A stretch of DNA of 63,113 nucleotides, counting the filler, from Stramenopiles sp. TOSAG23-6 (lineage: Eukaryota), in NCBI GenBank assembly GCA_900128565.1. It is 8 parts of 8 records of this genome, joined end to end, with 100 filler letters (N's around TTAATTAATTAA, not from the genome) between each part and the next. Parts side by side here need not be neighbours in the genome. Positions count along the whole stretch, not along the records: positions 1 to 7,823 come from LT636512.1; positions 7,924 to 15,736 come from LT636513.1; positions 15,837 to 23,640 come from LT636514.1; positions 23,741 to 31,542 come from LT636515.1; positions 31,643 to 39,438 come from LT636516.1; positions 39,539 to 47,331 come from LT636517.1; positions 47,432 to 55,223 come from LT636518.1; positions 55,324 to 63,113 come from LT636519.1. One strand, given 5' to 3'. Shown in pieces: positions 3 through 63,113 of this stretch. The notes under the pieces were generated by a model. The model was not told where the DNA came from. It did no database searches and saw only the letters and a list, made by a program, of their open reading frames with translations. Position numbers and translations under genes: made by a program. Within the stretch, counting starts at the first letter, position 1; each line of letters opens with the position of its first letter.

Positions 3-104
3 GTATGTTTTATTTTTTTTCAATTTCGAGTTTTTTTTTCGTACGAAATTTTGTACCTAACAAATTTTTTAGAATTTTTTTTGAATTATTTTTCCAAAAT
101 ACAT
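3..104 (+). mobile_element. Introner-like element copy (upstream exon outside window)
   Basis: GTATGTTTT...TTCGTACGAAATTTTGTACCTAAC...CCAAAATACAT consensus. Confidence 0.8.
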
Positions 105-786
105 AGGTGGAAGTCCGCCACGCAACTAGAGCGAGATATAACACCTGGCCCTGGAGCATATACTCTAAAATCAACATTGAATAGCACTGGTGGATCTATG
201 GCTGGTAGAGTGCCTTCTGAAATTGATATCATCGTGAGAAATGCTAAAAAGACTCCTGTATGTTACACTTTGTGGCAAACAACACTAAAATTTGGTATCT
301 TAGATTTTAATTTTTATTTCATTTGTAACAGATTTGACATATTGTACTAAATATATGGACCCGGCCATTACAATGTAAATTTTTCATCACTTAAAAATAA
401 TTGCGGTAGAATCAGCGAATTTACAAGTTTAACCGATGTCGATTGGATGATGAAAAATGCTTCAAGTATACCTGGGTATGTTCTTTTTAGTAAGTACCTG
501 TACTATATCTTTTTATAGCCCTCTTTATTCATGAATACATATTATATTTTACATATTGCATATATAATAGACCCGGCCACTATGACGCGACACCTATAGG
601 CAAGTCGTTTAGCGCAAGCTTTGGAACATATGTACCCAAGCATTTTGTTGATATTGCTGTCGAAAGGGGAAAGGCAGTACCTGCTCCGGGTTATGCGCAA
701 AAGTTTATTGTGCCAAAGCGAAAAAAAAGACTATCAGAAATTCGGTCCGAGCTCTCTCTCGCCAAAATTATGGAGGACAGGATTAA
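105..786 (+). CDS. Sperm-tail PG-rich repeat (ODF3/STPG-like) protein, 3' part; exons 105-257, 357-475, 571-786
   Basis: Repeated (T/I)PGPG(A/H)Y motifs are rebuilt across introns 258-356 (GT-AT) and 476-570 (GT-AG); stop TAA 784-786. Confidence 0.75.
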
Positions 787-1133
787 AAATAATATATCTA
801 ATAATTCACGACGTGCTATTACATCATACATGTAATGATTAAATGGATTAAATGTAAAGGATAAAAATGACTAACGGTAGTAAGAGAGACACAATTTAAT
901 ATTTCTTGTGAAATCGCGATTTTGCCCTTCGGGAAATCGGTGAAGCTCTCTTCGTATTAAAAAATAAATAAAAAACTATTGAATAAATGTATTACGCTAA
1001 TATATTTGACTTGCATTTTTATAATAGTGTACTAAAAAGCTCAAGCTCGATTTTATCTGAAAACTTGAAAAAAACTTTCGCGCGATTTCCAGCGATTCAG
1101 CAGATAAAAGATGTATATCTCATTTTGAATAAA

Positions 1134-1565
1134 TTATTTTGCGTTTCGTGCGCAATAATTTTTCAAGATAGCAGTAGACATTACAGCTGCATAAAGTGTT
1201 ACTGTGTTAGTCGTGTTGAAATAAGTGCCCACCATGTGAGGAAGTGCTGTTTGAAGAGACTTCGAGTTTTCGAAAAATGTTGAGGCGACAACTGCGACAG
1301 GAGTGAAATTTACAGCCTTGTTAAGGAACTTTTCCGGAACAGCTTTGGACAATACTTGGCTAGTTATTTTCACAACAGCACCGTGAATTTTGCTTTGAGT
1401 ATTCATTACAGTGTGTAACAACTTCTGAACCACATTTTTCCCACCACTTTTTTTCTTTCTTCCTTTAGGTGATTTACGAGCTGATTTGCGAGAACTCTTT
1501 GGACTCTTTGTGCGAGAACGCTTTGGTGATTTTCTTCGTGGAGATCTTGATGCTTTACGTGCCAT
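1134..1565 (-). CDS. Small protein with basic S/P/K/R-rich N-terminus, unknown function
   Basis: 143-aa ORF, SPRRKSPKRSRTKSPK repeats. Confidence 0.6.
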   Translation of the reverse strand: MARKASRSPRRKSPKRSRTKSPKSSRKSARKSPKGRKKKSGGKNVVQKLLHTVMNTQSKIHGAVVKITSQVLSKAVPEKFLNKAVNFTPVAVVASTFFENSKSLQTALPHMVGTYFNTTNTVTLYAAVMSTAILKNYCARNAK

Positions 1566-2309: not shown

Positions 2310-5300
2310 ATGATGATAAGAACTTATAATAGAATTCAACCCACGGTGGGTCGTTTTTCCTTGTCGATGTTTATAGCATGTGTTTTCGTGTGTTATTTCT
2401 CGACTTTTGTCTCTGGCGAGGAAGTTGGTGTCCAAATTCACAAAGGAACAAAAGATGGAGATGTACTGCATTCGCTAAACAACTTGGGGGAAGATACATT
2501 TCTATGTGATCCTGAAAATAATAAAAAAGATTGTCAGATATTAAAAGAATTATATTTTGCTACAAAAGGACAGAAATGGACTGGTGCAGCGAAAGACCTC
2601 GGTTTTGGTAAGGGGACTGATTTCTGTACGTGGAATGAGGACAAAATGCATCGTAGTGATTTTGACTATCAAAGTAAAATGGGAGTATTGTGTGACCCTG
2701 ACTCATCTAGTATCATATCTATACAACTGAATAATAGTAATTTAAGTGGATATCTTCCTGATAGTATCGGAGATCTTTTGCAGCTCCGAGTTCTATCTCT
2801 CCGTGGGAATACAATCTCTGGTGTACTACCCAAAACTTTAGCACAATTACAACTGTCTGTATTATTTCTTGACAATAACGAATTTGATGGAGCATTTCCA
2901 CCTGAGTTGTGTCCTTTAATTGATAGCCTTCGTTTCTGCCGTCTACAATCTGCAAACCTAAATCAAGATGGAAGATATAATATGTTCAACTGCCCAGTTC
3001 CATCTTGTCTAACATCTGGTATACTCTTTGACAAATGCAATGTAGTTGATTATAACAACTCATCATGCGGTGAAGGAAAATGTGACACCTCTGGTCAATG
3101 CCGTTGTTATATGGGCTGGTCAGGTAAGAAATGTGACGTTCCATATCTAGAAATTGGGTCTCTCGTAACCTTGGTCTTAATTTTAGCATGTTTCTTTTTA
3201 ATAGCAATGAAAAAATTTCGTGTTTGGTTTAAGTGTCGTAACTTGGCGCGTCTTCGAATGAATTCTGAGCTAATTACCCTCGACGAACCACTCCTTGATA
3301 ATTCAGGTGCAGAGCTTACAGGTTCGCTTATAAATGATGATAGTCAGTGGACGTGTCCTCTCTGTGCTCATGTCGTTAAATGGGATTGTGAAAGCAATCG
3401 TTTTCCTATTGATAACTGCCCAATGTGTGGTGGTCCTGGACCAGATGTTGAGTTACAACATCATGGTAGTAATGATGACGTGTCATCTACTGGACTGAAT
3501 ACTGGACGGTTGCAATTTTTGCGTTTTAGTCGTAAAAGAAATTTAAAGAAAACTTCACCATGGGCACCTGAGTTAGACAGACGAACTGGGACTATAAAAT
3601 GGAAGCGAAGTACTACTATAAAAAATAACAAAAAAAACACGACAGTGGAAGTAGAGAAAATGGAGTACCAACCTCCAAAAGATCCATCTTTATCTCAAAT
3701 TAAACCTTCTGGTGAATCTATTTCTGATCATTTGAATTCTGATCATTTGAATGCCATTTCTCCTCGGGTGTCTTTATCGAATGTATCAAATTCTACAGTT
3801 GAAGAACATGTTCAAAATGCATCTCTTTTTAAGGTAAAAGAAATTGCTGATGATGATACTCCTGGCGAATCCAAAATGGTGGATGGGGCTGCTCCTGACC
3901 CACCGACACTTATATCAAATCCATCATTGTCATCGAAGGGATGGGTAAGACAGTTGAATGCAAAAACAGGTGAAGTATCATTACGATCACTAGGTGATGG
4001 AAATGATGAATCCAAAGGGAAAAAAATTAGTCGAAAACTATTTAAGCTTTTACAACTTGTTTCGGCGCAACCTTTTCATACCAAATTACAGTGGTTTCGT
4101 AAACAAGTAGATAAATTGAGAATTCCAGAAGCTAAAGGCTCCATTGAATTCCAGGTGAGACGAGATTATTTATTGAATGACGCCGTGGATGGATTTGGTA
4201 AAATTAGTTTAACAAAAGACTTACATAAAACTTTTCGCTTCAAGTTTATTGGTGAACCAGCTGTTGATGCTGGTGGTGTGGCGAGGGAGTGGTTTGACCT
4301 TGTTGTTGGCTTACTATTCAATCCAGATTTTGGCTTATTTGAGTATACAAATGTATCAGGATTGTCATATCAAATTAATCGAGATTCTGGTTTAATGCAT
4401 GAAGAACATTTGAACTATTTTTTCGTTGCTGGGCAAGTTATTGGTAAGGCAATTCTAGACAGTATTCCAATACCTGCTCATCTTGCACCTCCTTTATTTA
4501 AGCATATTTTGGGCGTACCAATATCTATGGGTGATGTGTGTTATATGGACGAAGAAACTTATGACTCACTCACCTTGCTCAGAGAAAATCCTGGTGCGGA
4601 GGATGCTATGCTTGATTTTACCATTACTCGAATGGTTTTTGGTGAACCTGTAAATATTGATCTTAAACCGAATGGTTCTACTATAGATGTAACAGATGAG
4701 AACAAAGATGAATATTGTGAACTTGTGATTAAGTGTATTCTATTGGAGGACACGTCGTCACAACTTGGTCAATTATTGAAGGGTATTTATGCAGTTATTC
4801 CTCGAGAATTACTTTCTGTATTCGACCCAACAGAACTTGCAATGGTCCTTGCAGGTCTTCCACGAATTGATGTTGCTGATTGGGAAGCACATACAACTTA
4901 TGTAGAGCCTTTTGATAAAGAACACGAAGTTGTTCGGTGGTTTTGGAGTATCGTAGAAGACTTGAGCCATGAACAAAGAGCAAGAATGCTACAATTTACT
5001 ACAGGGTCGTCGAGAGTTCCTGTGACTGGGTTTGTTGCACTAAAATCACACAATGGAAAGTCTTGTTGTTTCACCATAGCACCATTGAAAGAGTCTGAGT
5101 CAGAGACGGAGGGCGAGACATCAGAGACTTCAAGAAGCAGCAGTACGTCGTGGATCCTTCGGCGACCCTCGTTAGCTTCTTTATTCTCTAGTCGATCAAA
5201 TAATTCCAGTAATAGTGAGTTAGAAAATGCAAATAATAATAGTAATTCCGTTATAGAATCTGAAGAAAAGGATAATGTAAATTCTTCGAGTAGTTCTCAA

Positions 5301-5588: not shown

Positions 5589-6533
5589 TTAACGTCCGGA
5601 AGGCCCAGAACGTTTCACATTACGTCCAGCACGCATAACTTCATCTACAAGAAGCAACTGTGATGCAATGACGGTACTCAACATTATGAAATGTCTTTTC
5701 ACTGTGTAATTATCCCAAATTCCCATATCCGCTGGTAGCATACCACCACCCCCATATACATCAAGTCCAACAGCATTGCCTGTCTTCTCATGTTCTTCCT
5801 GGAGTTCCAATATTGAATCCATAACATCAAATCCTGAGTTTTCTGCCAAAACTTTTGGAATAATTAACAATGCATCAGCAAATGCTTGTACGCCGAGCTT
5901 TGCTTTACCGGGTACATTTTTCTTAAACTCATTGACCAAATAGCTATGTGCGGCAATTTCAAACGAACCAGCGCCAGGAACAACACCCAAATCGTCTATG
6001 GCATTTTTCACTGCACGTGTACCATCACGAAGAGCATCCTTTAATTGGGCAATAGTGTGTGGATTTGGACCTCTAAGGAGAATCGTACAGGAAGTTGGAT
6101 TTTTAACACCTTCAATGAAACAATATTTACCTTCTCCAAGAGTCTCCTCATAAACGTGATCTGCATGACCAAGGCAATCTGGAGTAAGATCTTCAATACT
6201 GTTGACTTGACGACCACCACAAGCAAGCATAAGACGCTCCATATTACGCCTCTTTGCGCGGCGGAGTGCATAAATTCCTTCTTTGCAGAGCATGTCAAGT
6301 GACATTGGATCAACGCCCTTCTGATTGATAACAACAAACGATTTTCCAGATCCAGGAGGACAAACTTTGCGTTTTAACTCAAGAATGGCTTCTACCTTTT
6401 CGTCGGTGTATGTGCGCTCAGCGGCAACACACTTCTCGCGCTCTTCTGCATTCTTAAACATAAAAGTGGATTCAACATCAGTTTTCTCGTATTCCATAGA
6501 AATATTGGTAGTAAGAATAAAACAGTCACGAAG
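5589..6533 (-). CDS. CCT6: T-complex protein 1 subunit zeta, C-terminal exon only
   Basis: [42 protein letters not shown] motifs. Confidence 0.92.
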
Positions 6534-6630
6534 ATGTATTTTGGAAAAATATTTCAAAAAAATATTCGTTAGGTACAAAATTTCGTACGAAAAAAAATTT
6601 AGACAAAAAATTAAAAAAAATAAAACCTTC
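6534..6630 (-). mobile_element. Introner-like element, GA(?)-AT ends, joins kelch exon to CCT6 exon
   Basis: GAAGGTTTTATT...CGTACGAAATTTTGTACCTAAC...CCAAAATACAT. Confidence 0.75.
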
Positions 6631-7569
6631 ATGAATGTAAAGACTCAAATCGGCTGATCCAGCGACTGCAGCTGCGTGCCATGCACGTTTGGATGGTACA
6701 TCACCTAGTTCATTCCCTCCTCTAGTATCCGCATGTGTTTTAAATGACCATACTCTTGTTGTCAAATCCAATACTTGAACATCATTAAAGAAAATATCTT
6801 GAGCAAACATTCTATCCGGCCCTGCACCTCCAAATATAAGAAATCCATGACAATTTTTAACAGAGACAAAATTAGCCGTATGACCGCGACGTGCCGAAGG
6901 CGGCAAAAATGATGGAGGACCAACTTTAGTTTCAATAAAACGCCATTCTCTATCCATTACATTAAAGGCATAGAGATCTCCAAATATTTGACGTTTCGTT
7001 CCTGCTTTACCCGACTTATTGTATTCACCCTCACCTCCAAAAATCCATATTTCATTATTTGGCATTGATGTTAATGTATGTCCAGATCTAGGGGGTGGCA
7101 CATTATCTATCACATTAGATTTTTTCCACCCTTTATCAGGCACATCGACATCCATCATCCATAATTCATTTAATCGTCCACCATGAGACCCACCAATACC
7201 ACCAAATAAATACATCACATGACCAGCTATACCAAAAGCGAAACCTTCACGTATTTTCGGTGGTTGATGTTTGATTGATTGATACCTTGTCCATTTCTCA
7301 AGTGAATTTGGATCATTATTTACATTTTCTATTAATTGGTTCACTCCAGAGGATAGNNNNNNNNNNNNNNNNNNNNNNNNNNNNNNNNNNNNNNNNNNNN
7401 NNNNNNNNNNNNNNNNNNNNNNNNNNNNNNNNNNNNNNNNNNNNNNNNNNNNNNNNNNNNNNNNNNNNNNNNNNNNNNNNNNNNNNNNNTTTGCTTTAGC
7501 TATCTTCTCTATCTCATTAGAGCGGTAAATATTGTTTTTTGCCTCACCTTTCAAAAGTTTCCACGACAT
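6631..7569 (-). CDS. Kelch-repeat protein, N-terminal part (contains N gap)
   Basis: [38 protein letters not shown] repeats. Confidence 0.85.
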
Positions 7570-7823
7570 TTACTCTTTTGCAAGATATGTCGAGTAAAAA
7601 TTAAGACAAGTTGATATCCTCGATCTGTCAGTCAAAAAAGATCGTAAGTTTCGTAACGCTCGATCCACCCACAAACTCTGGGTCTAAGAATCTTAGACCC
7701 ACACGAAATTGTCGGGATTTTTGCGAGACCATTTTAGAGATCACGGTCAAAAATTCGATTTTCTTTCTTTTTTTTTTTGTACCAAATTCCGTACCTAAGT
7801 GATTTTTTCTTCAATTTGCAAGA

Positions 7824-13066: not shown

Positions 13067-15734
13067 TCACATTTTTCTGATATGATCTGGTGGTACTTGA
13101 GTTTCCTTATCACCATCACTATAGTTAATATCGTATGTACCATTACTATTACACTTTCCTATAGATGCTTCAAAGTAATCCTCGCCTCCTTGGTATCTTA
13201 CTGCAACAACATCACCAACACTGAAATTTTCTTGTTCTACCTCTGCACTTGTGGCATCTTGATCCATTGCGCGAACAAAATCAGCTGGAACATTTTGTTC
13301 CTTGTCCCCATCACTATAGTTTATATTGTAAGTACCATCAATATTACACTTTGCAATCGAACCTTCAAAATAGTCCTCCCCACCCTGATACCGCACTGCA
13401 ACAACATCACCAATACTAAATTGTGTATCATTGGTCGTACCCATTTTACCTACATTTGTATCACTAGATGAACCTACACTTACATGGCTTGATATCGCAC
13501 TAGCTGGTTCTGGAGATGTATTAGATTCTTCGGCGTCTTTACCAAATGGTCGTAAATATTCTTCAGGAACGTTATCTTCCGTATCACCGTCACTATAAGT
13601 AACAAAATAAGTACCATCAATATTACATTTTGAAATAATACCTTCAAAGAAATCTTGACCACCTTGAAACCTAGCTGCCACTGAATCGCCTTTTTTAAAT
13701 GCACCACGGTGTTCTTCTTTTTCGTGAAATACTGACGTAGATTGTGATGTTTTTACATCATTCGTTGCCGCAGAGTTTATGTCAAGTGAAGAATTTGAAG
13801 CAGTTGTAGTGGATGTCTGGTCATCTTCTACTACACTCCCATCTGCATTCATTAATCTAATGTTCTTCTCGAGTACCGATTTCTCTCTATCACCATCGCT
13901 ATATGTGACTCCGTAAGTGCCATCAATATTACACTTTGATATAGTACCTTCAAAGAAATCTTCTCCGCCTTGAAACCTTGCTGCAACTGAATCACCCACG
14001 GAAAAGGTAAAATTTTGTCTATCTGTTCTATTATTCTTATTTGGCGAAGTGAACGAATTTTCGCTATTCGTTTCATTAAGGTTGGGATTAGAACTAATAT
14101 TCTCCGGCTCGTCAGCTTTAATATCAGACATTTTACGTATAAAATCTTCCTGTACACTATTCTCTTTATCGCCATCACTATATGTAACAGAATATTTACC
14201 TACACCGGTTATTCCAGTAATTGATCCTTCAAACCAATCTTCTCCGCCTTGAAAACGTGCAGCAACTATATCGCCCACCACAAATTTCGCCGATTTTGCA
14301 AAGTTTTTGATATCAGCTTCCAATTTTTCTTTGGCTGCTTTTGCTTTTGCAATGCGTCTTTCTTCGGCTTCCTTTTGCTGTGCCGCTGCTTTTGCTTTTG
14401 CTATTTTTCTCTGCGCAGCTGCTTTTTCTTCTGCTATTTTCCTCTCTGCCGCTGCTTTTTCTTCGGCTACCCTTCTCTCCGAAGCTGCTTTTTCTTTAGC
14501 TATCTTTCTTTCTGCAGCTGCTTTTTCTTCTGCAATCTTTCTCTCGGCATCTTGATGTTCAGCACGTATATTCTCCCATTTTATCTTCACGCGTTGTACA
14601 CTTGAAATTGCTTCGTCTGCTGCCCTCTGCAAATCTGAAAGTTTCGTTTCGAATATCTCTTCGATGATCTGAAATACGTGCCAGGGCTGATTGAAGCAAT
14701 GTTCTAGCATTTGTGGTACAATTTTCAAACTCAACTCGAGAATTTTCTCCAACAGTCCTACCAATTAAAATATTACTATTTTGTGCAGTAGATACAATAG
14801 ATTCTAATTCTTTCTGTGAAGGCAATACCTTCTTCTGACTCATTTGATTCACTGTTTGTTGTAACCTCTGTTCTCTTTCGTGAAATTCCTTTTGTAATTG
14901 TTGTTTTCTTTTCTTCTCCTGTTTAATTAATTCTTCAACATGTCCAACAGCTTCTTTAGCTTCATTTAATACACGTTTGATCTGTTCACTTGTCATTTTT
15001 TGAGGCAATGCAAAGTCTACCTTCATCTCTGCTGCTTGTTTTGCTTCTCTAAGATTTTCATTAGCAGCAAGTAAAGCTTTCGAGATTTCTTCATTGCCTT
15101 CTAAGCCACTTTTAATCACTATTGACTGTAAATAGTCAACATTTTGATGGAGTGGATTAATATCGTCCTTCAATATTTGATTTCGAATTTCCTGTTCGTG
15201 TTGTACCCGTGCTGCTTGTTCCTGTACAGCTTTGGTCTTGTGTGTTGTTACTACATTACAACATTCTGTCACTTGCTTTGACGCGGCAATTACTGGTGCG
15301 GATAACAGTTGTAAAGTAGCACTGNNNNNNNNNNNNNNNNNNNNNNNNNNNNNNNNNNNNNNNNNNNNNNNNNNNNNNNNNNNNNNNNNNNNNNNNNNNN
15401 NNTGTCGAACGATTGCTGTTGCGGCTACGATAGCTGCATTCATACCTGCATGCTCACCAAATGTAGAATTGTGTTGTCTTACATCTGCTGATAAAACATC
15501 AAGGGTTTGTTTGGTTGATCTAATATCAAGTGATTCGACAAATTGTTTCGCCTGGGAAACCTTTTCTTTGGCTTCATCTGCTCTTACTTTTAATGTATGT
15601 AAAGCTGATGCAGTTGCAGAATCAGAACTCAAATAATCAGAGAGAGATGTTTGTCTTAATTCGCCACTGCCGACGCCACTAGTATCACCACAAAGTGTTT
15701 TTGCACGTGCTACTGATTCTGTTGCATGCTTCAA
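13067..15734 (-). CDS. Coiled-coil protein with five Tudor/Agenet-like repeats, 5'-incomplete, frameshift near 14670
   Basis: Five copies of F.VGD.VA.R(F/Y)QGGED.FEG.I..C..DGTY...YSDGD.E. Confidence 0.75.
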
Positions 15735-15883
15735 TGNNNNNNNNNNNNNNNNNNNNNNNNNNNNNNNNNNNNNNNNNNNNTTAATTAATTAANNNNNNNN
15801 NNNNNNNNNNNNNNNNNNNNNNNNNNNNNNNNNNNNAAAAAAAAAAAAAAAAAAATAGGGAAAAAATTTCCTATGAAAAAAAT

Positions 15884-15929
<46 letters not shown>

Positions 15930-15966
15930 ACAATTTTATGAAATTGGTGAAATAATGAAAATGTAC

Positions 15967-18292: not shown

Positions 18293-18561
18293 CACTCGAA
18301 ATAGCGTACTGTGGCAAGTACTCTAAAAGTAGTACTTAGTAGTAGTACTTTAAAAGTAGTAGTAAACGTCGTAGTAAACGCCAAGAAGACTTCAGAAGTT
18401 CAGAACTTTTTGGAGAACACCACGATAGTACCTGGTAACCTTGAATCTTAACTTCGCTGACTCTAAATTTTAGACACGTGTTCGTTGTGTTGTTGTTCTT
18501 TGCACGACTTGTTGTTGTTCGTCTTGTGATTGATTTTTCATACTAATCAAAACAATACAAT

Positions 18562-19282
18562 ATGGTACGTGACACTTCAACACATGTGGGAGGTTGTCAT
18601 CCATGATATTTGGATGACAACCTCCCACGTAGTTATATTTCGCTTTTATTTACTATCCCTATCCCACTTCGCCTTTCGTTAGTGTTACACGAACCCTAGT
18701 GTTACACTAACGTCATGGTTGAGACCGTTGTGCGATTGAACTTCCTTCGGGAAGCTTTCCTCATCGAGTATATGTGGCTAAATCATTTATTCACCATCAC
18801 AAACCCTTTATATATACCCAAATATACATGCTTTAATTGTAAAGGAAGGCGAGTTTCAGCACATTCTCCGTGTTATGAACACTAATCTTAACGGTAAGGA
18901 GAAAATCATGTATGCTCTGACAGCTATCAAAGGCATTGGTCGTCGTTTTTCCAACTTAATTCTTAAAAAAGCTGAGATTGACCTCAACAAACGTGCTGGT
19001 ATGATGTCTCAAGAAGAGATCGAAAAAATCGTAGCTATTATTGAAGATCCTCTTCGTTTTAAGATCCCAAAATGGTTCTTGAACAAACAGAAGGATCCTG
19101 TTACTGGTAAATGGACTCAACTACATGCTCAAGGTGTTGCTGGTGGTCTTCGTGAAGACATTGAACGTCTCAAGAAGATCCGCTCTCACCGTGGTCTCCG
19201 TCATTACTGGGGACTTACTGTTCGTGGTCAACATACAAAGACAACTGGGCGTAAGGGCAAATCTGTAGGAAAGAAAAACTAA
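18562..19282 (+). CDS. RPS18: 40S ribosomal protein S18 (uS13); exons 18562-18564 and 18830-19282
   Basis: [49 protein letters not shown]. Confidence 0.96.
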
Positions 19283-19565
19283 AGTAGCCTAACCCTAACC
19301 CTAACCCTAATGTCGAAATTAGTGAATTTGAAACATGTCAGGACTCGATTTTTTAATATTTTTGAGTTAATTATATAGCGTGAATTCAGTTCTATATCTT
19401 AGTTTGTTGATTGTCATAATCAAGTTAGAATTCTTAGAATTGTATTTAAAATATTGAATAAAAACCAGTATGAAAAAATATTTTGTAACCTTAACCCTAA
19501 GTACTATCGAATTGAAAAAAAAACACTTAAAATTGAATATACAATTTTATCTACTTAATTTTTTT

Positions 19566-23585: not shown

Positions 23586-23640
23586 ATGTATTTTGGAAAA
23601 ATATTTCAAAAAAAAAATCGTTAGGTACAAAATTTTTATA
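23586..23640 (-). mobile_element. Introner-like element truncated at contig end (others: 15837-15966, 31643-31701, 39384-39438, ~47280-47331, 47432-47508, 55136-55223, 55324-55376, 63022-63113)
   Basis: Consensus fragments abutting spacers or window edge. Confidence 0.8.
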
Positions 23641-30629: not shown

Positions 30630-30731
30630 ATGTATTTTGGAAAAATATTTGAAAAAAAAAAACTCAAATTTGTTAGGTACAAAATTTCGTACGAAAAAAA
30701 AAATTCGAATTTGAAAAAAAATAAAACATAC
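30630..30731 (-). mobile_element. Introner-like element, GT-AT
   Basis: Full consensus. Confidence 0.8.
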
Positions 30732-39383: not shown

Positions 39384-39538
39384 ATGTATTGTGAAAAAAA
39401 AATGTAGTCNAAANTTNTTAGGTACAAAATTTCGTACGNNNNNNNNNNNNNNNNNNNNNNNNNNNNNNNNNNNNNNNNNNNNTTAATTAATTAANNNNNN
39501 NNNNNNNNNNNNNNNNNNNNNNNNNNNNNNNNNNNNNN

Positions 39539-45300: not shown

Positions 45301-47198
45301 CTACTAAAAGTAAAGGGATAGGATGTGAAATATATATATATATGTATATATTCGTAAAAAAAAAAAAATCGTTGTACAAAATTTTCTATAAAAACACAAT
45401 ATAAGGTAAAACAGTAGGTAGTGATAAATATTTTTGAAGAAATTTGTTAGGTAAAAAATTTCGTATGAAAAAAAAAATTCGAAAAAAATATAAACGTACA
45501 TGAGTTGGAGGGCACATTCCCCGTATTCTTTGTTTGCCTTGTCGTCTTCTCCAGTTCCATAAAAATGTTTTATATTTTTCATTATTGTTATTGACGTCAT
45601 CACGTTGAATTGAAAAGCACAATCTTTTATCGTTAAGTTTGTATTTTTCTGGACAATCTATACAAATTGGTACAGATATCGCAACATTTAATGGAAGCGA
45701 AACATGTATTTTGGAAAAATATTTCAAAAAAAAATCGTTAGGTACAACATTTCGTACGAAAAAAAATAAATTCGAAATTGAAAAAATAAAACAAACATGT
45801 CCCCGATGATATTGATTACCTATTTTTGGATCAATTAATTGTATTTCATAATCTTCATAATATGTTTCAACAAATTTAGTATTCGCTTGAGCTTTATCTG
45901 TTTGATTAGGGTTTGATGTTTTTGTCTCTGAAGGAGGAAGCAAAATTGTTGATGAAATCGGACAATTTTTTGTAATCAACACCGCAAAAATTGAATCATT
46001 TGAGTAAATGTGAGGAATTTGGCGTTTAATAGAACTCTGCCATTCATATAATGAAAAATATGCAACAACGATAACTCGTTACCTTATAGAATTGTTTTGG
46101 AAAAACAATAAATTTAAACAATAAATTTGAATAATAAATTTGAACAATAAATTTAAACAATAAATTTGAACATAAATTTAAACACTTCATCCTCAAAAAA
46201 AAAAATATTAGGTACAAAATTTGGTACAAAAACAAATTGAAATTCATGATGAAAACGTACAAATGTACCATATAACTACGATGTATTTTTTCATTAAGTG
46301 TAATCCAATGTCGATCAATTTCGTTTGATGTTTTTGTACTCATTATCAATTTATTAAAGATATCAGATTCTGCTTCAAAAAGATCCCAAGTTCTATGCCA
46401 CGGCACAGGGTAAAATATATAGGGTTCTGCAATATTTACTTTTTTTTTATGTAGGGAATTTGGCACGGAATCATTAGTAGACTTTGAGAAATCTTCCCAT
46501 ACACGCTGCAATAATTTTGGTCCATTGTGTCCCCATAGATAACTAGAAAATTCAGACACAAAGCGGCATAGAGCTATCGCAATGAATGGATGCTCAGGTT
46601 CCCACATGGAGAGCACTGCATTATTGAGTTGATTTGGATCTTCCTCTCCCACAGTATTTTTCGGAATAGTTGAAAAATCTTTTTTAACAATCAAATCTGT
46701 GTCAAGATAAGTACCACCATATCGATATATCAAAGCTAACCGTAAAGCATCTGCCTTGTGGTGATATCCAAATCCGTTATCCCACTTTGCTTCGAAATAC
46801 CAATCCCTTAGATTAGTCCAGGGTTTGTTATTACAGTCACTTTTACAGTTGGATAATTGAGATGAAAAATAAAACTCATCCGCATAGTTAAATCGAACGA
46901 CAATTATATTGGTTGCCAATGTTTGCAAAACTCCTGCTGACCAAGTATTGGAATAAACAAAGACATTTCTATTGGGATTTTTACTGGTTGCGCTTTCAAT
47001 GGCGCATAGAGCAATACCATCAGGGGTATATTCTTCACTTGTATGTACAAAAAAGATATCCGATCCAAGCCTCGGTAATGGCGCTGTATTTTTTCCTTGA
47101 ACAAGTATTTGGAACAATAAGAAGCATAATCCAAGTAGTATACCAGTACGGCGTAATGTCATTCCTTTGCTAGAAAAATAGGCGGAAATGCAACGCAT
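42322..47198 (-). CDS. Multi-exon glycosyltransferase: N-terminal GT32 (DXD, A4GALT-like) domain and C-terminal GT-B-like domain, seven element introns
   Basis: CAIESA, ADALRLALIYRYGGTYLDTD, WGHNGP; C-terminal KIV|FVTSSKYSYTLAKYWEAALAGSLIVGNIP. Confidence 0.7.
42746..42874 (-). mobile_element. Introner-like intron, degenerate, GT-AT
   Basis: Join reads AKI-V-FVTSSKY; nearby CAG gives an immediate stop. Confidence 0.75.
43810..43905 (-). mobile_element. Introner-like intron, GT-AT
   Basis: Join reads RDFIH-LLKAAQ. Confidence 0.8.
44745..44846 (-). mobile_element. Introner-like intron, GT-AT
   Basis: Join reads VKCS-S-PPCK. Confidence 0.75.
44981..45072 (-). mobile_element. Introner-like intron, GT-AT
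   Basis: Full consensus; join reads GLNT-I-NSND. Confidence 0.82.
45118..45233 (-). repeat. 39-bp coding tandem repeat x3 (NIDQNIQQTTDEI)
   Basis: ATTTCATCTGTCGTTTGTTGAATATTTTGGTCAA repeated three times. Confidence 0.9.
45330..45499 (-). mobile_element. Introner-like intron, compound; 3' boundary approximate within (AT)n
   Basis: AT|GTACGT.. with two core-like segments. Confidence 0.6.
45704..45796 (-). mobile_element. Introner-like intron, GT-AT, 93 nt without in-frame stop
   Basis: Join reads HRGH-VSLPL. Confidence 0.82.
46050..46260 (-). mobile_element. Introner-like intron with internal short tandem repeats; 3' boundary uncertain
   Basis: TT|GTACGT...GTACCTAAT; downstream exon SIFAVLITKNCP completes the GT32 domain. 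Confidence 0.6.
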
Positions 47199-47508
47199 AT
47201 ACGCATGGGGTCTTTGACTTTGACCCGCGGTTGAGAGAGAGATTGGAGAAATTTATGACGTTTAAAATTTCGATAAATTTTATTTTTTCAAAAAAAAATC
47301 ATTTTTTTTTTCATAGTAAATTTTGTACCTANNNNNNNNNNNNNNNNNNNNNNNNNNNNNNNNNNNNNNNNNNNNTTAATTAATTAANNNNNNNNNNNNN
47401 NNNNNNNNNNNNNNNNNNNNNNNNNNNNNNNTTGTAAAATATGTTAGGTAGAACATTTCGTACGAAAAAAAAATCGATTTTTTTGTTTAAAAAAAAAATA
47501 AAACGTAC

Positions 47509-50394
47509 ATAGTGTTCATCGACGCGACGTCGTTTACGAACTTGTCGAGGAGCAGCTGAACCCCAAGATCTTGGTGGCCGATACATCTGTGAATTGTTAT
47601 TATTACGATTTTGTGAAAAATATTGTTGCCCACCCGAGTTATTTGATAGTCTAGGTCTTGTACCTTCTAATACACTCTTACCTAAATCTGCAATACTAAC
47701 TCCACGACCTAATCGTGGTTCTTTAATAAATTTATCTTGTGGTAGAAGAACTTCATCTGGTAGAATTGCACCTTCAAGAATTTCACATCGATGAGGTCTA
47801 AAACAATCTGGTTCAGGTGGTTGATCAAAATGTAACACAAACGCTTGATTCGATTGTACTGCATTGAAACGAGACCCAGGTGCGGAAAGACTATCTCCTT
47901 GTCCAGGCATATGTGGTGCAATATTAACAACACCATTAATACTCGCTCCATCACATCGTTGTACGTACACTTTTTGAGAGTGTTCACCTTCATTTGATGT
48001 GTCCTTAGATGAACTCAAAGAATCCTTTGTTGCCGCTAAAACAGCCGATGCAAGTGGATGATCATATCTAACATAAAGTAAATCATGACCACGCGTATTT
48101 CGTAATTTCTCGGCAGGTGAGAATTCTTGTATGACATCTTTCATTGCATCAAACAAACGTTTTTCATCAATAAATGGTAGTAAAACTACCCAAAGCCATT
48201 TATATTTGTGACCATTGGCATCTAATTGAAATTCTTTAGGATAAAAATCAATAATTGGAGAGCTTTCTGAAGCCATTAATGGCCAACACGGTTTTGGTAA
48301 CATATGTTTACTAGATTCAGGTTGAACACCCATCAATTGTGCTATTGGTGTAAATGGTTCAGATAATTCGAATTTGATCTTGAATTGATCTAAATTTAAA
48401 AGATCAGACGCACAAGGCGCGTAATGATATGGATAATACCATTTCCAAGATACACAACCCTTATAATAATACGCCAGTACCCAACATAACCCTTTTGTAA
48501 AATGTTCAACTACAGTGGTTGTAAAGCCAGGTTGTTTAGCCTGTTCACCAAACTTACTTAAATAGTATCTTCCCTTCCAACCACTAATTCCAAATTTGAC
48601 ATCATCTTTTATTGTATCATCTACATTATTATCATATATTAATTCTTTTAATTCTTTTTGGTACTCTTCAACTGAAACTGTTTTTTCTTTTGCATCTTTT
48701 GTATCTTTTGTATCTTTTGTATCGTTTATTTCATTGGTGACGTCACTTGATGATGATAATGATGATGATGATGGCGTATCTTTTATTTCATTTATGACGT
48801 CACTTGATGATGATTTATTTTTTTTCGATAATGTTGCCTTTAAAGCAGCAGCTGCAGCTTTATTTGATGTATTTGATGCAATACGTTGAGAACCACTCGT
48901 ATTATTAGGGTTAGGGTTCTGATTCATCTTTGTAGTAGATGTTGATTTTCTACCTAATGGAATAGCATCAATTTTATCACGGTCGTCGTTATGCTTATAA
49001 TGACAACGTTTACCTTTATCACAACGGCCACGTTGAAAATTTCTACACAGAGGATTCGTTGATTTCATTTTTGCAATTTCCTCTGGATTTCCATGCTTAA
49101 ACCGACATCGTTTTCCTCTAGTGCATTGCCCTTGTGCAAATGCCCTACACAGCTGTTCAGCTTGACGTGCCAATTTATCTGCTTCTTGGTTTCGTCTGAG
49201 ATACGTTTCCTCTTCAAATTCACCAATGACAGCAAGAATGACGTCAACACGAGACAAATTAACATCTCCACAATTTGTTAAATAACCACCAATCGCAGGT
49301 AATTTAGCACGATAAATATTCATTAATACACCAAGCGCACCCTCACGAATATCTAATGATGGTAAGTGTGGTAGAAAATCATTTCCTACAAAGAAACAAA
49401 GAAACACAAAGTCATCAACAATTCTTTCAAAATTATACACAAACGGAATTTGACCTTTTGCTTCCATTGCAGCAATGGCAGCGTTAGATGGAGGAACAAT
49501 GGCAGTTTCTAAATCTGCAAACTCAGCACGAAGATACTCACGTAAAATACTTATATGTAGAAACTGTAGAGGTTTGTCAAATAATAGATTATCGGCAACT
49601 TTTTCACCTTCTTTTCCTTTCGGCGTAAACACTTGTTCACGAAAAATGGTAAAATTAGCTTCATGAGTTGCTAACCCAAGCATTATCAAATCAGCATCCA
49701 AACCGTGTAGAATATGTTTTTCATTTGGGTTATACCCTGGTTGTGCGCGTTGTTGTCTTATATACTGCATAATTTTATGCTCTCCTTCTCCAGGGCATCG
49801 TGCATCAGATAAAACAATTTTGAGATGTTTCCAATTTGGATTATTTGTCAGTCTGTCATGACAATACCAACGAAGATGTTCTGAAAGTTTTGTCATAAAA
49901 ACTGTACCAGGAGTGATGACATTATGATCCCAAGAAGGCTTTTTTTTAGGAGGAACTTGCATACCGTTCTTTCGTAACTTATCACGAAGGTTATCTTCAA
50001 GCGCAACAACTTCATCACGCTCTTGAGCAGCACGGAATCGTCTACTTCTTTGCTGATTCATTTTCGCTCTTGGAGCTACACCGTCGACTGCCATGTACAA
50101 AAGTTTTCGAGGACGCGCGACAGCCAAAAGGCGGTCAATGTATTTACAAATGTTTTCGAACATTTCAGCCTCCGTCTCCGGGCGACGGCCAAGATCTTCA
50201 CCGTGAGAACAGTTATGCACAATTCCATTCATATCGAGATAAAGATTATCAAATTCCATTCCATTTGGATTTGGTTCATCTGTATTGATTGGAATCTCTT
50301 GACCGTCAATAACGACAGGTTTCTCTTCCACGGCAGATACGATAGACTTTGGATATTTTAGCATGAGCCATCGAAAGAATGCTGGAACTCCCAT
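47509..50394 (-). CDS. XRN2: 5'-3' exoribonuclease 2 (Rat1), 3'-incomplete
   Basis: MGVPAFFRWL..KYP, DNLYLDMNGIVH, PGEGEHKI, GNDFLPHLP, WYYPYHYAP. Confidence 0.92.
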
Positions 50395-55135: not shown

Positions 55136-55453
55136 GTATGTTTTATTTTTTTTTCAATTTCTAATTTATTTTTCGTACGAAATTTTGTACCTAACAAATT
55201 TAAGTTTTTTTTTTGAAATATTTNNNNNNNNNNNNNNNNNNNNNNNNNNNNNNNNNNNNNNNNNNNNTTAATTAATTAANNNNNNNNNNNNNNNNNNNNN
55301 NNNNNNNNNNNNNNNNNNNNNNNTTGTACCTAACAAATTTAAGTTTTTTTTTTTGAAATATTTTTCCAAAATACATGGATACGTGGTATTTTTGCAAGGA
55401 GGAAATTAGATAAAGTACTACACAAAAGACGTTATTTAATTTCAGGTAAAAAT

Positions 55454-56839: not shown

Positions 56840-56881
56840 ATAGTATGAATTTATGAATTTATTTGATTACTTTGAGATGTC

Positions 56882-59400: not shown

Positions 59401-61069
59401 TTACTTACTTGTATTCATCAAACTTTCCCATCTTTTCCAGTATTGATTTGATTTTTCAATTGTGAGTAAAGTTGAGTAAATTGATAATTTCAGGTGAGAA
59501 AATTTCTCCAAAATTTTCACTTTTGATTCTGTTTTTCTACAATTTTGTATTTTATCCTTTACAAATGAAATTAACCATAAAATATAGTTGAGAGCTTCAA
59601 ATCTACTACACTCATTTTCTTTAGTGTTCGGCGATTGCACAACACATTTTAAAGAGACAAATCTTATTTCTCTTTCAAAAAATGTACAAAATTCATGCTC
59701 AAATATCAGAGGAGTAGAACTTGTTGGTCCATTCAAAATCGAATCTGTACCAAATTTCGTACCTAACGAATTTCGATTTTTCTGAGTGTAACAAAAAGTC
59801 CCAAATTGTACATTGCTAAATGAAGCATATATTGATGTACATGATGAATTATTTTCAAAAGTCATGTTATTTTTTGAAAAAAAAAGAAGTATAGTATTCA
59901 CTAAACTACGTCTATAATGCCAAAGTGACTCATTACCTGGGAACCTGTCCATTAATGTATCTAATACGTCATTCTGATCAACTATAATAGAATGCATGTA
60001 TTTTGGAAAAATATTTTTTTTTAGTAAACGTTTTTGTTAGGTACAAAATTTCGTACGAAAAATAAATAAATTTAAAATTGATCCTGAAAACATACATTTC
60101 TTTAGGAGATATATTTGTGTCAGAAAGAAATCCAAATAAAATGGACACATAATGCCAACCAGAAAAATCAGATATATGTAATCTAAGCCAAGTATTCATA
60201 TTTCTGACTTCTTTTTTTAATACTTGAATTAATTGAGAATCGATTTTTTTTCGTTGTTTTTCATCAGTTGAGAGTGATATTTTTTGTGTATAATTTCCTA
60301 CTATTTTTTTCATAATTATACACCGATGAGTCCAAGCATAGTAATTGCGCTTATAACCATACGAACTATGACTTTCTACTGACCGCTCACAAATTACAAA
60401 TTCCGCAAGGTATAATTTCTCATGCCAACGGAATTGTTCAATTGGTGAATTTGTAGATTTAGTATATACTTGATATGCTTTGTCTAATAATTTAGGGTGG
60501 CATAATAACCATCGTCTATTTTTCCATGTTTCTTCACTTTTAGGATGATGACGAAGCACAATATCGTTGAAATGCAACTCATCCATAAAAGCATCTTTTG
60601 GAGAATATTTTTGGGCTGTACTACATTTAGTTTCGTTTCCATCGAAAATACAACTCTTTTCAATCAAAATACACTTTCTTGCATTCCATGCGGCAGCACA
60701 ATCGCCGTTAATAAGCAATAAAACTCTTGTGCTGCACTCTAAGCTGATAACATCACGTTTTTTTGTTGTGTTTTTTACGCTTTTTCCAGCCTTTTCTATA
60801 CTCACTGATTTCCAATGCTTTCGCTTATAAACAAAATCTTTCCACGCACTCTCATAAATCCACGGGGTACACCATAAAGCAATTCCAATCTTATGTTCTA
60901 CATAAGTAAAAGCCTGGTTAGCACCGGGTATAAAGCCAATCTCATCAATAAGAGGGTCTTTATGAAGGAAAGCACAAAAGCGTTCATAGAAATCATCATC
61001 AATGGATGCTAAGTTTTGACGGCGAATGCGCTTACCTTCCTTTCCTCGACATCTTGATACACCATGCAT
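59401..61069 (-). CDS. PTAR1: Protein prenyltransferase alpha-subunit repeat protein; exons 61069-60096, 59995-59401
   Basis: IDEIGFI, AAWNARK, PKSEETWKNRRW, NYYAWTHR, HISDFSGWHY, FPGNESLWHYRR. Confidence 0.85.
59996..60095 (-). mobile_element. Introner-like intron, GT-AT
   Basis: 100 nt; join reads SPKE-M-HSIIV; the two next downstream AGs give stops. Confidence 0.88.
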
Positions 61070-61381
61070 AGCCAAGTATGACACTGCGACTGCGTCTAAT
61101 TATAAAACTCCATTCTTCAATTGATTTGAGATTTAGGAGGATTCAGTGAAATCGGAAGGTTTCGATTTCAAAAAGAGGATTTCCACATCATCTGAAATCG
61201 CAATCTCATCAAGTCAGAATCAGATTCTGACTCGAACACCCTAACCCTAGGCGGCAACAACATGCACACGTGTCACGTATAGGACCGCGCAATTATTCGG
61301 CGGCAAATATTGAATATTTATACGTACACAAAATTGAAAATTTTTTAGTGTTTGGAGGTATTAAGCATTGCATTGAAAGTA

Positions 61382-63021
61382 ATGGTTGATGCTCGTCAAC
61401 ATAGAAATGTTGTGGCAACAGAATCTTCAGAAAATGCTCCAATGCCTGCCATCGTTGTGCGAGTGGCACAATCTTCTAAGTCTTTGTTGCTTCGACAGTT
61501 TGAATCTATTGTAAGCGACTCTGGTGAATGGACACATACGTGCATACACTGTAATAAAGTTATCTCTAATGCGAAACTTCTAATTCAAGCGCGTGCAATT
61601 GCACATGTTAAAATATGTGTGTCAATCAGTGATGATTTGAAGACGCAATGTAATGCAAATTTAAAGAGAAATGTTAAAGCTTTAAATGGTGTAGTTAGGT
61701 CACAATTTAGAACAGAAGCTACAGGTAACACCTTTACTCATACGTGTATTCACTGCTTAAGAGTCGTTTCGAGAGCTTTACATTTCAATACAACGCGCGC
61801 ACTTGAACATATTTCTACATGTACAATAGCATCAGATCAAGTTAAAACTGATTGCGCTGCCACCTCTCAGAAAGCAAAACGGAAGAAAATGAATGCGTTA
61901 GGAGAAATGTATGTTTTATTTTTTTTCAAATTTGAGTTTTTTTCGTACGAAATTTTATACCTAACGATTTTTTTTTGAAATATTTTTCCAAAATACATAC
62001 GGAAAGGAAAACAGATTATCAGACAGAGAGTAAGAAATAGTACCGGTAATTTGCACACTGTTTCACATCATAATCCAAAAACAGTTCTTTGTTATGGCGA
62101 CTCGAACACCTGGGGGTATGATTCTGTAACTGGGTCTCGTTTTGCGTTGCATATGCAAGTTTTCAAAATTGAATTTAAATTTTTTTTTTTTTTTCAAACT
62201 TTTTAGTACCTAACAATTTTTTTCTACAATATTAAAGTATTTTTTCACTATGCATCCGTTGGCCTGGAGTTGTACAAACCATGCTTGGCACAAATATCAG
62301 AATTGTTGAATGTGGCTTAAGTGGTCGCACAACAGTAATGGACGATCATGCATGTGGATATGTATGTTTTATTTTTTTTTTTACAAAAAAATCGAATTTA
62401 TTTTGTTTTCGTACGAAATTTTGTACCTAACAAATTTTGGAATTTTTTTTGAAATATTTTTCCAAAATACATCTTGCTTCTAATGCAGACCCTAGTTGGT
62501 GCAACGGCAGAAAAGTATTAGGACCGACTCTTCATACTACAAAACCTATAGATCTCGTCATATTATTTCTTGGTACAAATGACCTTCAAACAAAATACAG
62601 AAAGACCGCGGCTGATGTACGTTTTATTTTCTTTTTAAACAAAAAAAACAAAAAAATCGATTTTTTTTTTTATAAAAATTTTGTACCTAACAAAATTTTT
62701 TAAAATTTTTTTGAAATATTTTTTCATAATCTATATTGCGTATAGTTGTGGGATTCTAATTGATGACATTGTCACAAGTTCAGTTTGCGCTCAAGGAAAT
62801 CCAACTGGTCCGTCTATGTATCCAGACTATCGCACAAAAAGAAATAAATTTCGTGGAACTAATCCTGTCCCACCTTCGATCATCTTGGTCTGCCCGGCGT
62901 CCTGTACCAATGAAAATTTTAGAGGATTTGAAGGTACACTTGAAAAATCAAAAAATCTTGGAAAAGAATACAAAAAAGTAGTTGCGGAAAAATCATTGTT
63001 ATGGAAGAAATATGGTCTCAT
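61382..63021 (+). CDS. SGNH/GDSL hydrolase with two N-terminal BED-like zinc fingers, 3'-incomplete; exons 61382-61908, 61999-62154, 62256-62361, 62473-62616, 62735-63021
   Basis: CYGDSNTWGYD..H-I-RWPGV..GLSGRTT..LFLGTND..AAD-IAYS assembled only after excision. Confidence 0.85.
61909..61998 (+). mobile_element. Introner-like intron, GT-AT
   Basis: Full consensus, in-frame phase 2. Confidence 0.85.
62155..62255 (+). mobile_element. Introner-like intron, GC-AT
   Basis: AT|GCAAGT...GTACCTAAC...CACTATGCAT; join reads RFALH-I-RWPG. Confidence 0.85.
62362..62472 (+). mobile_element. Introner-like intron, GT-AT
   Basis: Full consensus; join reads ACGY-LASN. Confidence 0.88.
62617..62734 (+). mobile_element. 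Introner-like intron, GT-AT
   Basis: Join reads TAAD-IAYSCG. Confidence 0.85.
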
Positions 63022-63113
63022 GTATCTTTTATTTTTTTTTTTAAACAAAAAAATCGATTTTTTTTTCGTACGAAATTTTGTACCTAACAAATTTTAGGTT
63101 TTTTTTTTGAAAT

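Follow-up and report, generated by a model that had tools for sequence, protein, structure and literature searches.

The window analyzed here, a stretch of 63,113 nucleotides (nt) from Stramenopiles sp. TOSAG23-6 (GenBank assembly GCA_900128565.1), contains a family of short repeated inserts in protein-coding sequences. Most of the inserts begin with GT and end with AT. They are probably spliceosomal introns of one short, non-autonomous family of introners similar to miniature inverted-repeat transposable elements (MITEs), with two subfamilies. We infer that they are removed by splicing, in the GT–AT register, with an altered recognition of the 3′ splice site. An earlier reading of the same DNA, made from the sequence alone and called the original prediction below, had proposed a high-copy introner-like family of GT–AT introns. 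This interpretation is probably right in substance; a GT–AT family is likely real, and it has precedents. The high copy number, the location in coding sequences and the need for an exact removal of GT...AT all stand, while the original prediction had overlooked the ambiguity of the register, which affects 20 of 29 complete copies.

Structure and copy number of the repeat family

With an nhmmer profile built from 12 clean copies, 41 matches are found at E < 0.03, in at least 10 different genes within 63 kb. Twenty-nine complete copies were curated, both ends being set from the family alignment, and their lengths are 89–190 nt. In eight more copies the 3′ end is unclear or the sequence is interrupted by a gap or by the window end, and three odd fragments of the family are seen beyond the complete and partial copies. 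The element density is about 0.6 copies per kb in the window. The motif TTCGTACGAA occurs 24 times with at most one mismatch against 2.2 expected, and none of 100 shuffles reaches 24. The motif TTTTTCCAAAATACAT, with at most three mismatches, occurs 27 times against 5.3 expected, again reached in none of 100 shuffles, and [GAT]TA[CT]CTAAC occurs 31 times. About 40 related inserts of about 90–190 nt with shared motifs had been counted in the original prediction, and both points agree with the profile search and the shuffles.

The consensus of the family is (AT)GTATGTTTTATTTTTTTT..AAATTCGA..TTTTTCGTACGAAATTTTGTACCTAAC..T-run..GAAATATTTTTCCAAAATACAT. A second, more diverged subfamily starts with GTACGTTTTCAT.ATGAATTTCAAATTT and ends with TTTTTCACAATA[CT]AT. 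Among 27 aligned copies, the best-kept columns are the 5′ splice site and TACC.AA, which is invariant and is followed by a T-rich tract. The putative branch box (TACCTAAC, with an almost invariant ACCTAAC) is located 32–48 nt from the 3′ end in all measured copies but one; in this measurement the box of copy c25 was mis-detected, and c27 is composite. Copies c14 and c27 are tandem or composite doubles. The first two bases of the 29 complete copies are GT (27 copies), GC (one) and GA (one), with the consensus GTAYGT. The last two bases are AT (24 copies), AG (four) and TT (one). All three partial copies that retain only the 3′ part end with ACAT, which brings AT to 27 of 32. The earlier manual count (about 27 AT, 3 AG and 1 TT) and the earlier position of a branch-like box, about 40 nt from the end, are close to these values. 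No T-rich CTAAC or CTGAC site is found outside the family in the window. No non-family intron was seen with which the 3′ ends could be compared, and the family appears to supply every intron in the window.

The canonical features of U2-type introns are present in the extended GT/GC 5′ site and in the putative branch box with its T-rich tract. The canonical AG at the 3′ end is seen in only 4 of 29 copies. U12-type introns have the 5′ site RTATCCTT and the branch box TCCTTAAC within about 10–20 nt of the 3′ end. RTATCCTT is found in no copy, the nucleotides at +5 and +6 being G and T, not C and C, and the box here is TACCTAAC at 32–48 nt. A U12-type reading was therefore rejected on both counts. 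An Rfam scan of the window gave no match.

Reading frames and orientation

For each copy, the longest stop-free frame on each side was taken, and the two were joined by cutting from the family-aligned G to the last base. When GT...AT is cut out, the flanking open reading frames (ORFs) are in frame with each other in 26 of the 28 copies that could be tested (binomial p 6.9e-11 against 1/3), and in 25 of 27 (p 1.9e-10) without the chimeric copy c02. Copy c01 is outside this test because the window starts there. Retention would add an in-frame stop, a frameshift or both in 26 of the 29 complete copies, in line with the earlier statement that most copies would do so. The ORFs on both sides of the inserts are long, with intact domains.

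All 37 copies with assessable flanks are in the sense orientation of the flanking long ORF; two partial plus-strand copies at contig ends (7748–7823 and 47260–47331) are outside this count. In a reversed element, the ends GTAT.. and ..ACAT are still present and the branch box is absent. Selection for splicing would explain this strand bias, whereas excision of DNA would not. The original prediction had described the orientation as always sense within coding sequences. This holds for the assessable copies but not for a family fragment of 51 nt (59733–59783, plus strand; nhmmer E 4.6e-6), which lies antisense in the open last exon of the PTAR1-like gene. It is translated within this exon as ...QKNRNSLGTKFGTDS... 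and may be an exonised antisense insertion.

The acceptor site and homology at the junctions

Among 27 AT- or TT-ending copies with a recognisable branch box, 18 lack any AG from the box to the boundary, and in the other nine an AG is located 10–36 nt from the branch A. An AG that is in frame and stop-free inside the intron is found in 3 of 29 copies (c18, c20 and c34). On the exon side, an AG that keeps the frame is lacking from the first 45 nt in 12 of 25 complete AT- or TT-ending copies. In c02 and c23 there is no AG from the branch box to the boundary, and the first AG is seen 48 and 63 nt into conserved coding sequence. The sequence thus supports the conclusion that for most copies no AG could serve as the acceptor. 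The coding frames, together with homology at three junctions, also support a requirement for the removal of exactly GT...AT.

The first of these junctions is that of c34, in a gene for an SGNH-type esterase. The exon before c34, of 51 residues, is aligned without gaps to residues 4–37 of the esterase 4tx1_A as far as its residue 50. The match of the exon after c34 begins at residue 40 of 4tx1_A, and the remaining residue and the split codon correspond to positions 38 and 39. The spacing at this junction in 3dci_A is the same as in 4tx1_A. The exon after c02 matches CCT-zeta residues 226–527, and the match begins at exon residue 2. Likewise, the exon after c23 matches positions 170–218 of the Peptidase_C1 profile, the end of the papain-family domain, from its residue 2.

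It had been claimed that excision restores recognisable motifs. This is true of the SGNH blocks and of the PTAR1-like ORF, which contains PPTA repeats, while the WW match is weak (E 0.002). Protein searches for orthologues spanning the junctions gave no match for the SGNH exon at longer lengths, one match of 28% identity of no use for junctions for the PTAR1-like exon, and for XRN2 only P0001, which is the window's own sequence. In Pfam, single SGNH exons gave one weak match only. SGNH exon 5 had no SGNH match among PDB sequences, where the other SGNH exons matched.

A proposed origin from a small mobile element

It can be proposed that each copy brings its own U2-type 5′ site GTAYGT, together with the branch box (G)TACCTAAC, a T-rich tract and a YAT 3′ end. 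The structure at the insertion would be AT|GTAT...ATAC AT|, bounded by terminal inverted repeats that are short and imperfect, and by a direct repeat of 2 nt, probably a target-site duplication. If the element is removed as an intron together with one of the two repeat copies, the old frame would be restored exactly. The last two intron bases would then be mostly AT because the intron includes one repeat copy, with AG or TT in copies whose flank is different or has undergone mutation. The upstream flank is the same as the 3′ end in 22 of 29 copies: at/AT in 20, tt/TT in c07 and ag/AG in c12, the latter two being non-palindromic. AG-ending copies tend to be more diverged (p 0.06), and a later conversion of suboptimal AT to AG would fit them.

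Under this scheme, the major spliceosome of the host must tolerate not only G but also U as the last base of the intron (YA[U/G]). We give about even chances to the following idea: the lineage re-specified its choice of the 3′ site (YAU being equal to YAG) while it kept textbook 5′ and branch sites, and this tolerance let a MITE-like element spread whose 3′ dinucleotide is a copy of a 2-nt AT target duplication.

In c34 both arms of the terminal repeat are changed, with ATGCA...TGCAT in place of ATGTA...TACAT. This is a single compensatory-looking case, and no covariation of the repeat arms was seen beyond c34.

RNA and DNA reads

Words of the window occur in seven RNA runs, with a small share in each. 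Reads were placed over 15837–23640, with part of the repeats left out. For three contigs from run X8 (polyA RNA), the match stops at the last exon base before c11, c12 and c14 (21143, 21418 and 22649). These contigs bear 31, 6 and 80 further letters that are not placed on the adjacent intron, where DNA contigs do lie. The ends of the X8 contigs at exon edges are only a hint from RNA. Contigs from X3, an independent seawater metagenome, span exons and intron ends (23132–23610 and 21378–21930), and in independent metagenome contigs the depth of the inserts is normal, like that of exons.

A scan of metagenome contigs for the element core found one contig, L001, in which a copy (2476–2578, minus strand; at|GTATGT..ACAT) is in frame between two ORFs. 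In a scan of viral contigs, a 17-mer was seen at six loci, none with wider similarity to the family, and one weak match had E 0.0034; these 17-mer matches were rejected as family members and taken as chance.

In bins with family copies (16359–16619, 17664–17924, 20274–20795, 21057–21578, 22623–22883 and 23406–23640), the summed contig depth is hundreds to thousands of times that of neighbouring exons, in a seawater DNA run and two RNA runs. Summed contig depth does not measure copy number; even so, a very high abundance of the family in those samples is clear. A very high summed depth (about 5000 in X9 and about 1800 in X3) is also seen at 19491–20012, where there is no family copy. A length difference of 3 bases is located at 19747 within this stretch, which may be a low-complexity or widely shared segment.

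Counter-evidence and rival explanations

Several observations weigh against an introner family spliced at GT–AT. The terminal inverted repeat (ATGTAT.TTTT against AAAATACAT) is short, matching at 9 of 13 consensus positions, and the flank and the 3′ end disagree in 7 of 29 copies. An origin from a small DNA transposon with a 2-nt target duplication would fit the ends and flanks, and neither an empty site nor an autonomous partner was found. Most copies have an alternative in-frame YAT 15 nt upstream, and the exact acceptor is fixed mainly by those copies in which the upstream YAT is at 13, 14 or 16 nt or is absent. These copies (c19, c11, c06 and c14) are still in frame at the terminal AT, so the terminal site is the consistent one. 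Because of the YAT 15 nt upstream, it matters that three of the five esterases matched on both sides of c34 (2q0q, 7bxb and 5hoe) have 4–5 more residues at the junction loop. The upstream exon ends with AT in 20 of 29 copies, where removal as GT–AT, TG–CA or AT–AC gives an identical messenger RNA. In c02 (at|GAAGGT) the upstream AT is kept and GT is lost, which at face value fits AT–AC better; this counter-case is weakened by the position of c02 at a near-certain misjoin.

The two misses of the frame test, c19 and c20, both flank one 96-nt exon with two open frames, and c20 is clearly out of frame. A C6 homopolymer 35 nt upstream of c20 may have been miscounted, which would put both introns in frame as GT..AT; alternatively, a new CAG 7 nt before the end of c20 serves as its acceptor, with the end of c19 at 30801. 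In c29, neither an AT end nor an AG end keeps the frame. The assembly is of poor quality: it contains 878 N, the reading frame switches near 14600, and c02 lies at a misjoin. As for RNA, the best 15 of 433 joints are all repeat artefacts, and no clean exon–exon junction is seen among the joints listed. A contig from the RNA run X6 (22655–22839) enters c15 by 35 nt, and element words are very deep in RNA runs, too. The last two facts indicate that retention or carry-over of DNA exists. The mapping of RNA reads suggested along with the original prediction neither establishes nor excludes splicing over 15837–23640: the X8 contigs stop at exon edges, while the X6 contig runs into c15 and the listed joints are artefacts.

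It is rather unlikely that the true register of the same family, with the same length, is AT–AC, as U2- or U12-type AT–AC introns. From yeast genetics, introns that begin with A and end with C are known to be tolerated, and 20 of 29 copies can be written as AT|GT...AC|AT with the same product in either register. AT–AC is the classic pair of minor introns (PMC1557818), and c02 has kept AT and lost GT. However, GT or GC is found at the start of 28 of 29 copies and AT or AG at the end of 28 of 29, whereas in the AT–AC register AT is found in 20 of 29 and AC in 18 of 29. GT is retained in all nine copies that lack the upstream AT, and these copies are more diverged (Mann–Whitney p 0.02). Where AC is lost (AT, TT, CT, GC, GT and CC), the terminal AT or AG stays. 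Since GT and the terminal AT are kept in diverged copies while the upstream AT and the preceding AC decay, the GT–AT register is favoured. Copy c34 would turn into an AT–GC intron in the AT–AC register, and in the GT register it is an ordinary GC donor. The G at +5 and the T at +6 fit the U2-type GTAYGT, not RTATCCTT, and the branch box at 32–48 nt is outside the 10–20 nt of U12-type introns.

Three other explanations leave conventional, precise splicing aside. In one, the terminal inverted repeat (AUGUAU...AUACAU) would draw the two ends of the insert to each other and direct its removal from RNA without the spliceosome, a mechanism suggested for the nonconventional introns of euglenids and for the introners of Amoebophrya; we regard this as quite improbable. 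The ends are inverted over 9 of 13 consensus positions, the arms of c34 have changed together (ATGCA...TGCAT), and Amoebophrya introners have inverted repeats, direct repeats of 3–5 nt and varied ends (PMC7789003). Nevertheless, RNAalifold predicts no consensus pair in 27 copies, and the mean z-score of the minimum free energy is only −0.5 over 28 copies. There is only an A/U-rich inverted repeat of 6–10 nt at the ends, and neither a consensus fold nor an end-pairing stem is supported. The best-kept parts are the U2-type 5′ site and the branch box, not a stem, and in c07 and c12 the agreement of flank and end is direct, not complementary. Equally improbable is an imprecise removal, by cryptic AG sites nearby or with the genes being dead copies or assembly artefacts. 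Fourteen of 29 copies have a frame-keeping AG within 45 nt downstream, one RNA-run contig retains an intron end, and the assembly has errors with at least one misjoin. But 26 of 28 copies are in frame only by exact excision, and the downstream AGs 48 and 63 nt into the exons would delete conserved residues of CCT-zeta and of the papain-type protease. The flanking ORFs are long with intact domains, and the independent metagenome has the same exon–intron arrangement. Finally, the inserts might be removed from DNA like the internal eliminated sequences of ciliates, the sequenced genome being germline-like, and this seems most improbable. The transposon-like ends and the 2-nt flanking repeat would suit such removal, and precise loss of the element with one repeat would restore the genes. 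Against it, all 37 assessable copies are in sense orientation, which DNA excision does not need; the 5′ splice-site and branch motifs are conserved; and the inserts are present in the assembly and, at exon-like depth, in independent metagenome contigs. Nuclear dimorphism is not known in stramenopiles.

Comparison with known introners and non-canonical introns

The original prediction did not recognise a described system here. This was overstated, as precedents exist in Polarella and Symbiodinium, in larvacean tunicates and in mammals (10.1101/2020.10.14.339549, PMC13326754 and PMC1557818). The introners of Aureococcus anophagefferens and Pelagomonas calceolata, whose hosts are also stramenopiles, resemble the family: short, transposon-like elements in high copy, bounded by inverted and direct repeats, give rise to introns in coding sequence (10.1101/2021.10.25.465678, PMC7789003). 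They are about 210 nt long with AG as the acceptor, in all cases in Pelagomonas (10.1101/2021.10.25.465678), whereas the copies here are 89–190 nt and 24 of 29 end with AT; this comparison is by description only.

The introner-like elements of Polarella glacialis and Symbiodinium bring one splice site with them and obtain the other from the duplicated target (10.1101/2020.10.14.339549). The new introns there show suboptimal boundary variants, such as GA donors, that are later converted (10.1101/2020.10.14.339549). The identity of the 3′ dinucleotide and the upstream flank in 22 of 29 copies resembles this system. The duplications in Polarella and Symbiodinium are 4–8 nt and the recruited 3′ site is AG, while here the repeat is 2 nt and mostly AT, which is non-canonical.

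Introns with 3′AC or 3′AT at the genome scale are found in larvacean tunicates (the Fritillaria borealis lineage), where they are processed by the major spliceosome with divergent U2AF1 and U2AF2 paralogs (PMC13326754). In contrast to these, the introns here have a textbook GTAYGT and depart only at the last base (YAT), and they belong to one family in a protist host. A MITE origin of larvacean introns was reportedly put forward by Henriet et al. in 2019.

The repeated introns of Amoebophrya are alike in having inverted repeats and 3–5 nt direct repeats across the boundaries, which leave the register ambiguous (PMC7789003). They have no dominant terminal pair and have hairpin-forming inverted repeats of 8–20 nt, whereas here GT–AT is dominant, the branch box is strong and no stem is predicted. 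In animals, GT–AT introns include the U2-type intron of DGCR2 and U12-type introns such as those of DEADC1 and SLC24A6, single conserved GT–AT introns are known in mammals, and both spliceosomes can exceptionally finish splicing at AT (PMC1557818). The animal cases are singletons, with seven U12-type cases in four species, while here there are dozens within 63 kb and they are not U12-like.

In a recent survey of introners, AG and AC alone were accepted as 3′ sites, and families with unfamiliar sites were dropped unless supported by RNA (PMC12130899). In the literature searched, which covered introner surveys apart from their supplementary tables, neither a GT–AT introner family nor unusual splicing in stramenopiles of the marine stramenopile (MAST) type was found. 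In the accessible part of a paper on single-cell genomes of uncultured stramenopiles (PMC5778133), introns are mentioned only in the methods.

If RNA data confirm these introns, the G of the 3′ AG would be dispensable at the genome scale with canonical 5′ and branch sites. This would be a cleaner case than those of tunicates and Amoebophrya, where both ends vary, and the rules of the 3′ splice site in the second catalytic step would become directly testable. The AT ends would need an unusually tolerant splicing machine. If the 3′ site was re-specified, changes in U2AF1, Prp8, Slu7, Prp18 or the small nuclear RNAs are expected. An introner that supplies a non-canonical splice site from a target duplication would also bear on how new introns become fixed. 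Since standard gene finders miss such introns, as in an XRN2 model that ends in a translated intron, systematic truncation or splitting of proteins is likely in the proteomes of uncultured marine protists of this kind.

Copies along the window

The sequences at the boundaries are written here with the upstream exon dinucleotide in lower case. At the start of the window, c01 (3–104, plus strand) is complete (at|GTATGT..ACAT), and its 5′ exon is cut by the window start. Copy c02 (6534–6630, minus strand; at|GAAGGT..ACAT) has lost the donor GT and lies between the Kelch ORF and CCT-zeta 226–527. A diverged partial copy (7748–7823, plus strand) lies before a linker gap.

All copies between 16 and 24 kb are on the minus strand, and those with both ends are in frame. 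They start with c04 (16105–16266), a diverged copy with an AG end (tg|GTACGT..ATAG), followed by c05 (16547–16669; GTATGT..ACAT), the diverged c06 (16937–17057; at|GTATTT..GTAT), c07 with a TT end (17375–17510; tt|GTACGT..ACTT) and c08 (17661–17776; aa|GTTCGT..TTAT). In c09 (20325–20433; ct|GTATGT..ACAT) the upstream exon dinucleotide is not AT. AG ends are also seen in c10 (20712–20848; aa|GTTTGT..ATAG), c12 (21323–21417; ag|GTTCGT..ACAG) and the diverged c13 (22075–22177; ct|GTACAT..CCAG). Copy c11 (21044–21142) has GTACGT..ACAT, and the X8 contig matches that end at 21143 and 21418 adjoin c11 and c12, respectively. The tandem double c14 (22459–22648; 190 nt, GTACGT..ACAT), where another X8 match ends at 22649, is followed by c15 (22805–22913; GTACGT..ACAT), into whose 3′ end the X6 contig reaches 35 nt, and by c16 (23063–23163; GTACGT..ATAT). 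Only the 3′ part of c17 (23586–23640), with an ACAT end, is present, and its 5′ part is lost in the linker gap.

Around c14 and c15 (22459–22913, minus strand), two neighbouring exon repeats (..YTLAVPPG[I/M] | GPGE.FQ..) each contain a family intron at the same codon position. This indicates that some copies come from internal gene duplication, not from insertion. No intron-free paralogue of the internally repeated exon of this gene (19.6–23.6 kb) was found within the window.

The next group is again on the minus strand. Copy c18 (30630–30731; GTATGT..ACAT) is in frame. The diverged c19 (30801–30907; aa|GTATTT..(AT)n) ends at 30803 or 30801 depending on the frame of the 96-nt exon, and c20 (31004–31101; GTTTGT..ACAT) has the only clear frame conflict. 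Copy c21 (31643–31701) is a 5′ part (at|GTACGT) with its 3′ part lost in the gap, c22 (31838–31926; GTATGT..ACAT) is in frame, and c23 (39384–39438) is a 3′ part (ACAT) next to the exon that matches Peptidase_C1 positions 170–218.

Six further copies on the minus strand are found between 43 and 47 kb, five of them in frame: the diverged c24 (43810–43905; GTACGT..ATAT) and c25 (44745–44846; gt|GTACGT..ATAT), c26 (44981–45072; GTATGT..ACAT), the composite c27 (45342–45499; 158 nt, GTACGT..ACAT) and c28 (45704–45796; GTTTGT..ACAT). The sixth, c29 (46083–46260; tt|GTACGT), is diverged, and the use of the AG at 46083 leads to a stop. It contains an internal minisatellite of about 20-nt, TTCAAATTTATTGTT-like units at 46090–46170 (minus strand). 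A partial copy on the plus strand (47260–47331) at a contig end runs into the linker. Beyond the linker, c30 (47432–47508, minus strand) is a 5′ part at the end of the XRN2 ORF, and the gene model P0001 reads into it.

Copy c31a (55136–55223, plus strand) is a 5′ part before a linker gap and c31b (55324–55376, plus strand) a 3′ part after it. Their phases do not match, and c31b may belong to another intron than c31a. Copy c32 (59996–60095, minus strand; GTATGT..ACAT) is in frame in the PTAR1-like gene. The last copies are on the plus strand in the SGNH gene. Its introns 1 to 4 are c33 (61909–61998; GTATGT..ACAT, in frame), the diverged c34 (62155–62255; at|GCAAGT..GCAT), colinear with 4tx1_A and 3dci_A, c35 (62362–62472, in frame) and c36 (62617–62734; GTACGT..CTAT, in frame). 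Copy c37 (63022–63113, plus strand; at|GTATCT) is cut by the window end.

Assembly, host and gene models

The window contains 878 N, including those of seven N-TTAATTAATTAA-N linkers that are contig joins (7824–7923, 15737–15836, 23641–23740, 31543–31642, 39439–39538, 47332–47431 and 55224–55323). Six of the seven linkers, at least, directly adjoin a family copy; the assembly is broken by the repeat, and neighbouring blocks therefore need not be adjacent in the genome. Within 5592–7356 (minus strand), c02 links the Kelch-repeat ORF (6631–7356) to the C-terminal 300 residues of CCT-zeta (5592–6533). The CCT-zeta part corresponds to residues 226–527 of the solved CCT6, whose first 225 residues are absent there. 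The Kelch/CCT-zeta junction is almost certainly an assembly misjoin inside the repeat. At about 14560–14770 (minus strand), two long ORFs of 409 and 565 amino acids lie in different frames and share about 200 nt; no intron signal separates them. The overlap resembles an assembly error by insertion or deletion, and an error of this kind is therefore plausible for the frame conflict of c20.

The GC content is low (27–45% per 2 kb), and the window is eukaryotic DNA with long ORFs, which encode HECT, XRN, ABC, kinase, Kelch, CCT and other domains. In a protein search, the XRN2 ORF shows about 50% identity to proteins of oomycetes, brown algae and other stramenopiles. By similarity of its proteins, the host is a low-GC marine stramenopile. 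The nearest other proteome is 64–77% identical, at the protein level only.

The best match of the XRN2 ORF is P0001, with the source label 'GSMAST32.ASY1.ANO1.713.1'. P0001 is the window's own XRN2 ORF with pieces carved out, 828 of 831 residues being identical. Compared with the ORF (47434–50394, minus strand), 156 residues have been carved out as false introns. The last 25 residues of P0001 (VRFIFF...) are a translation of c30 from its start to the contig gap. In this case, the introns of the family are invisible to annotation pipelines.

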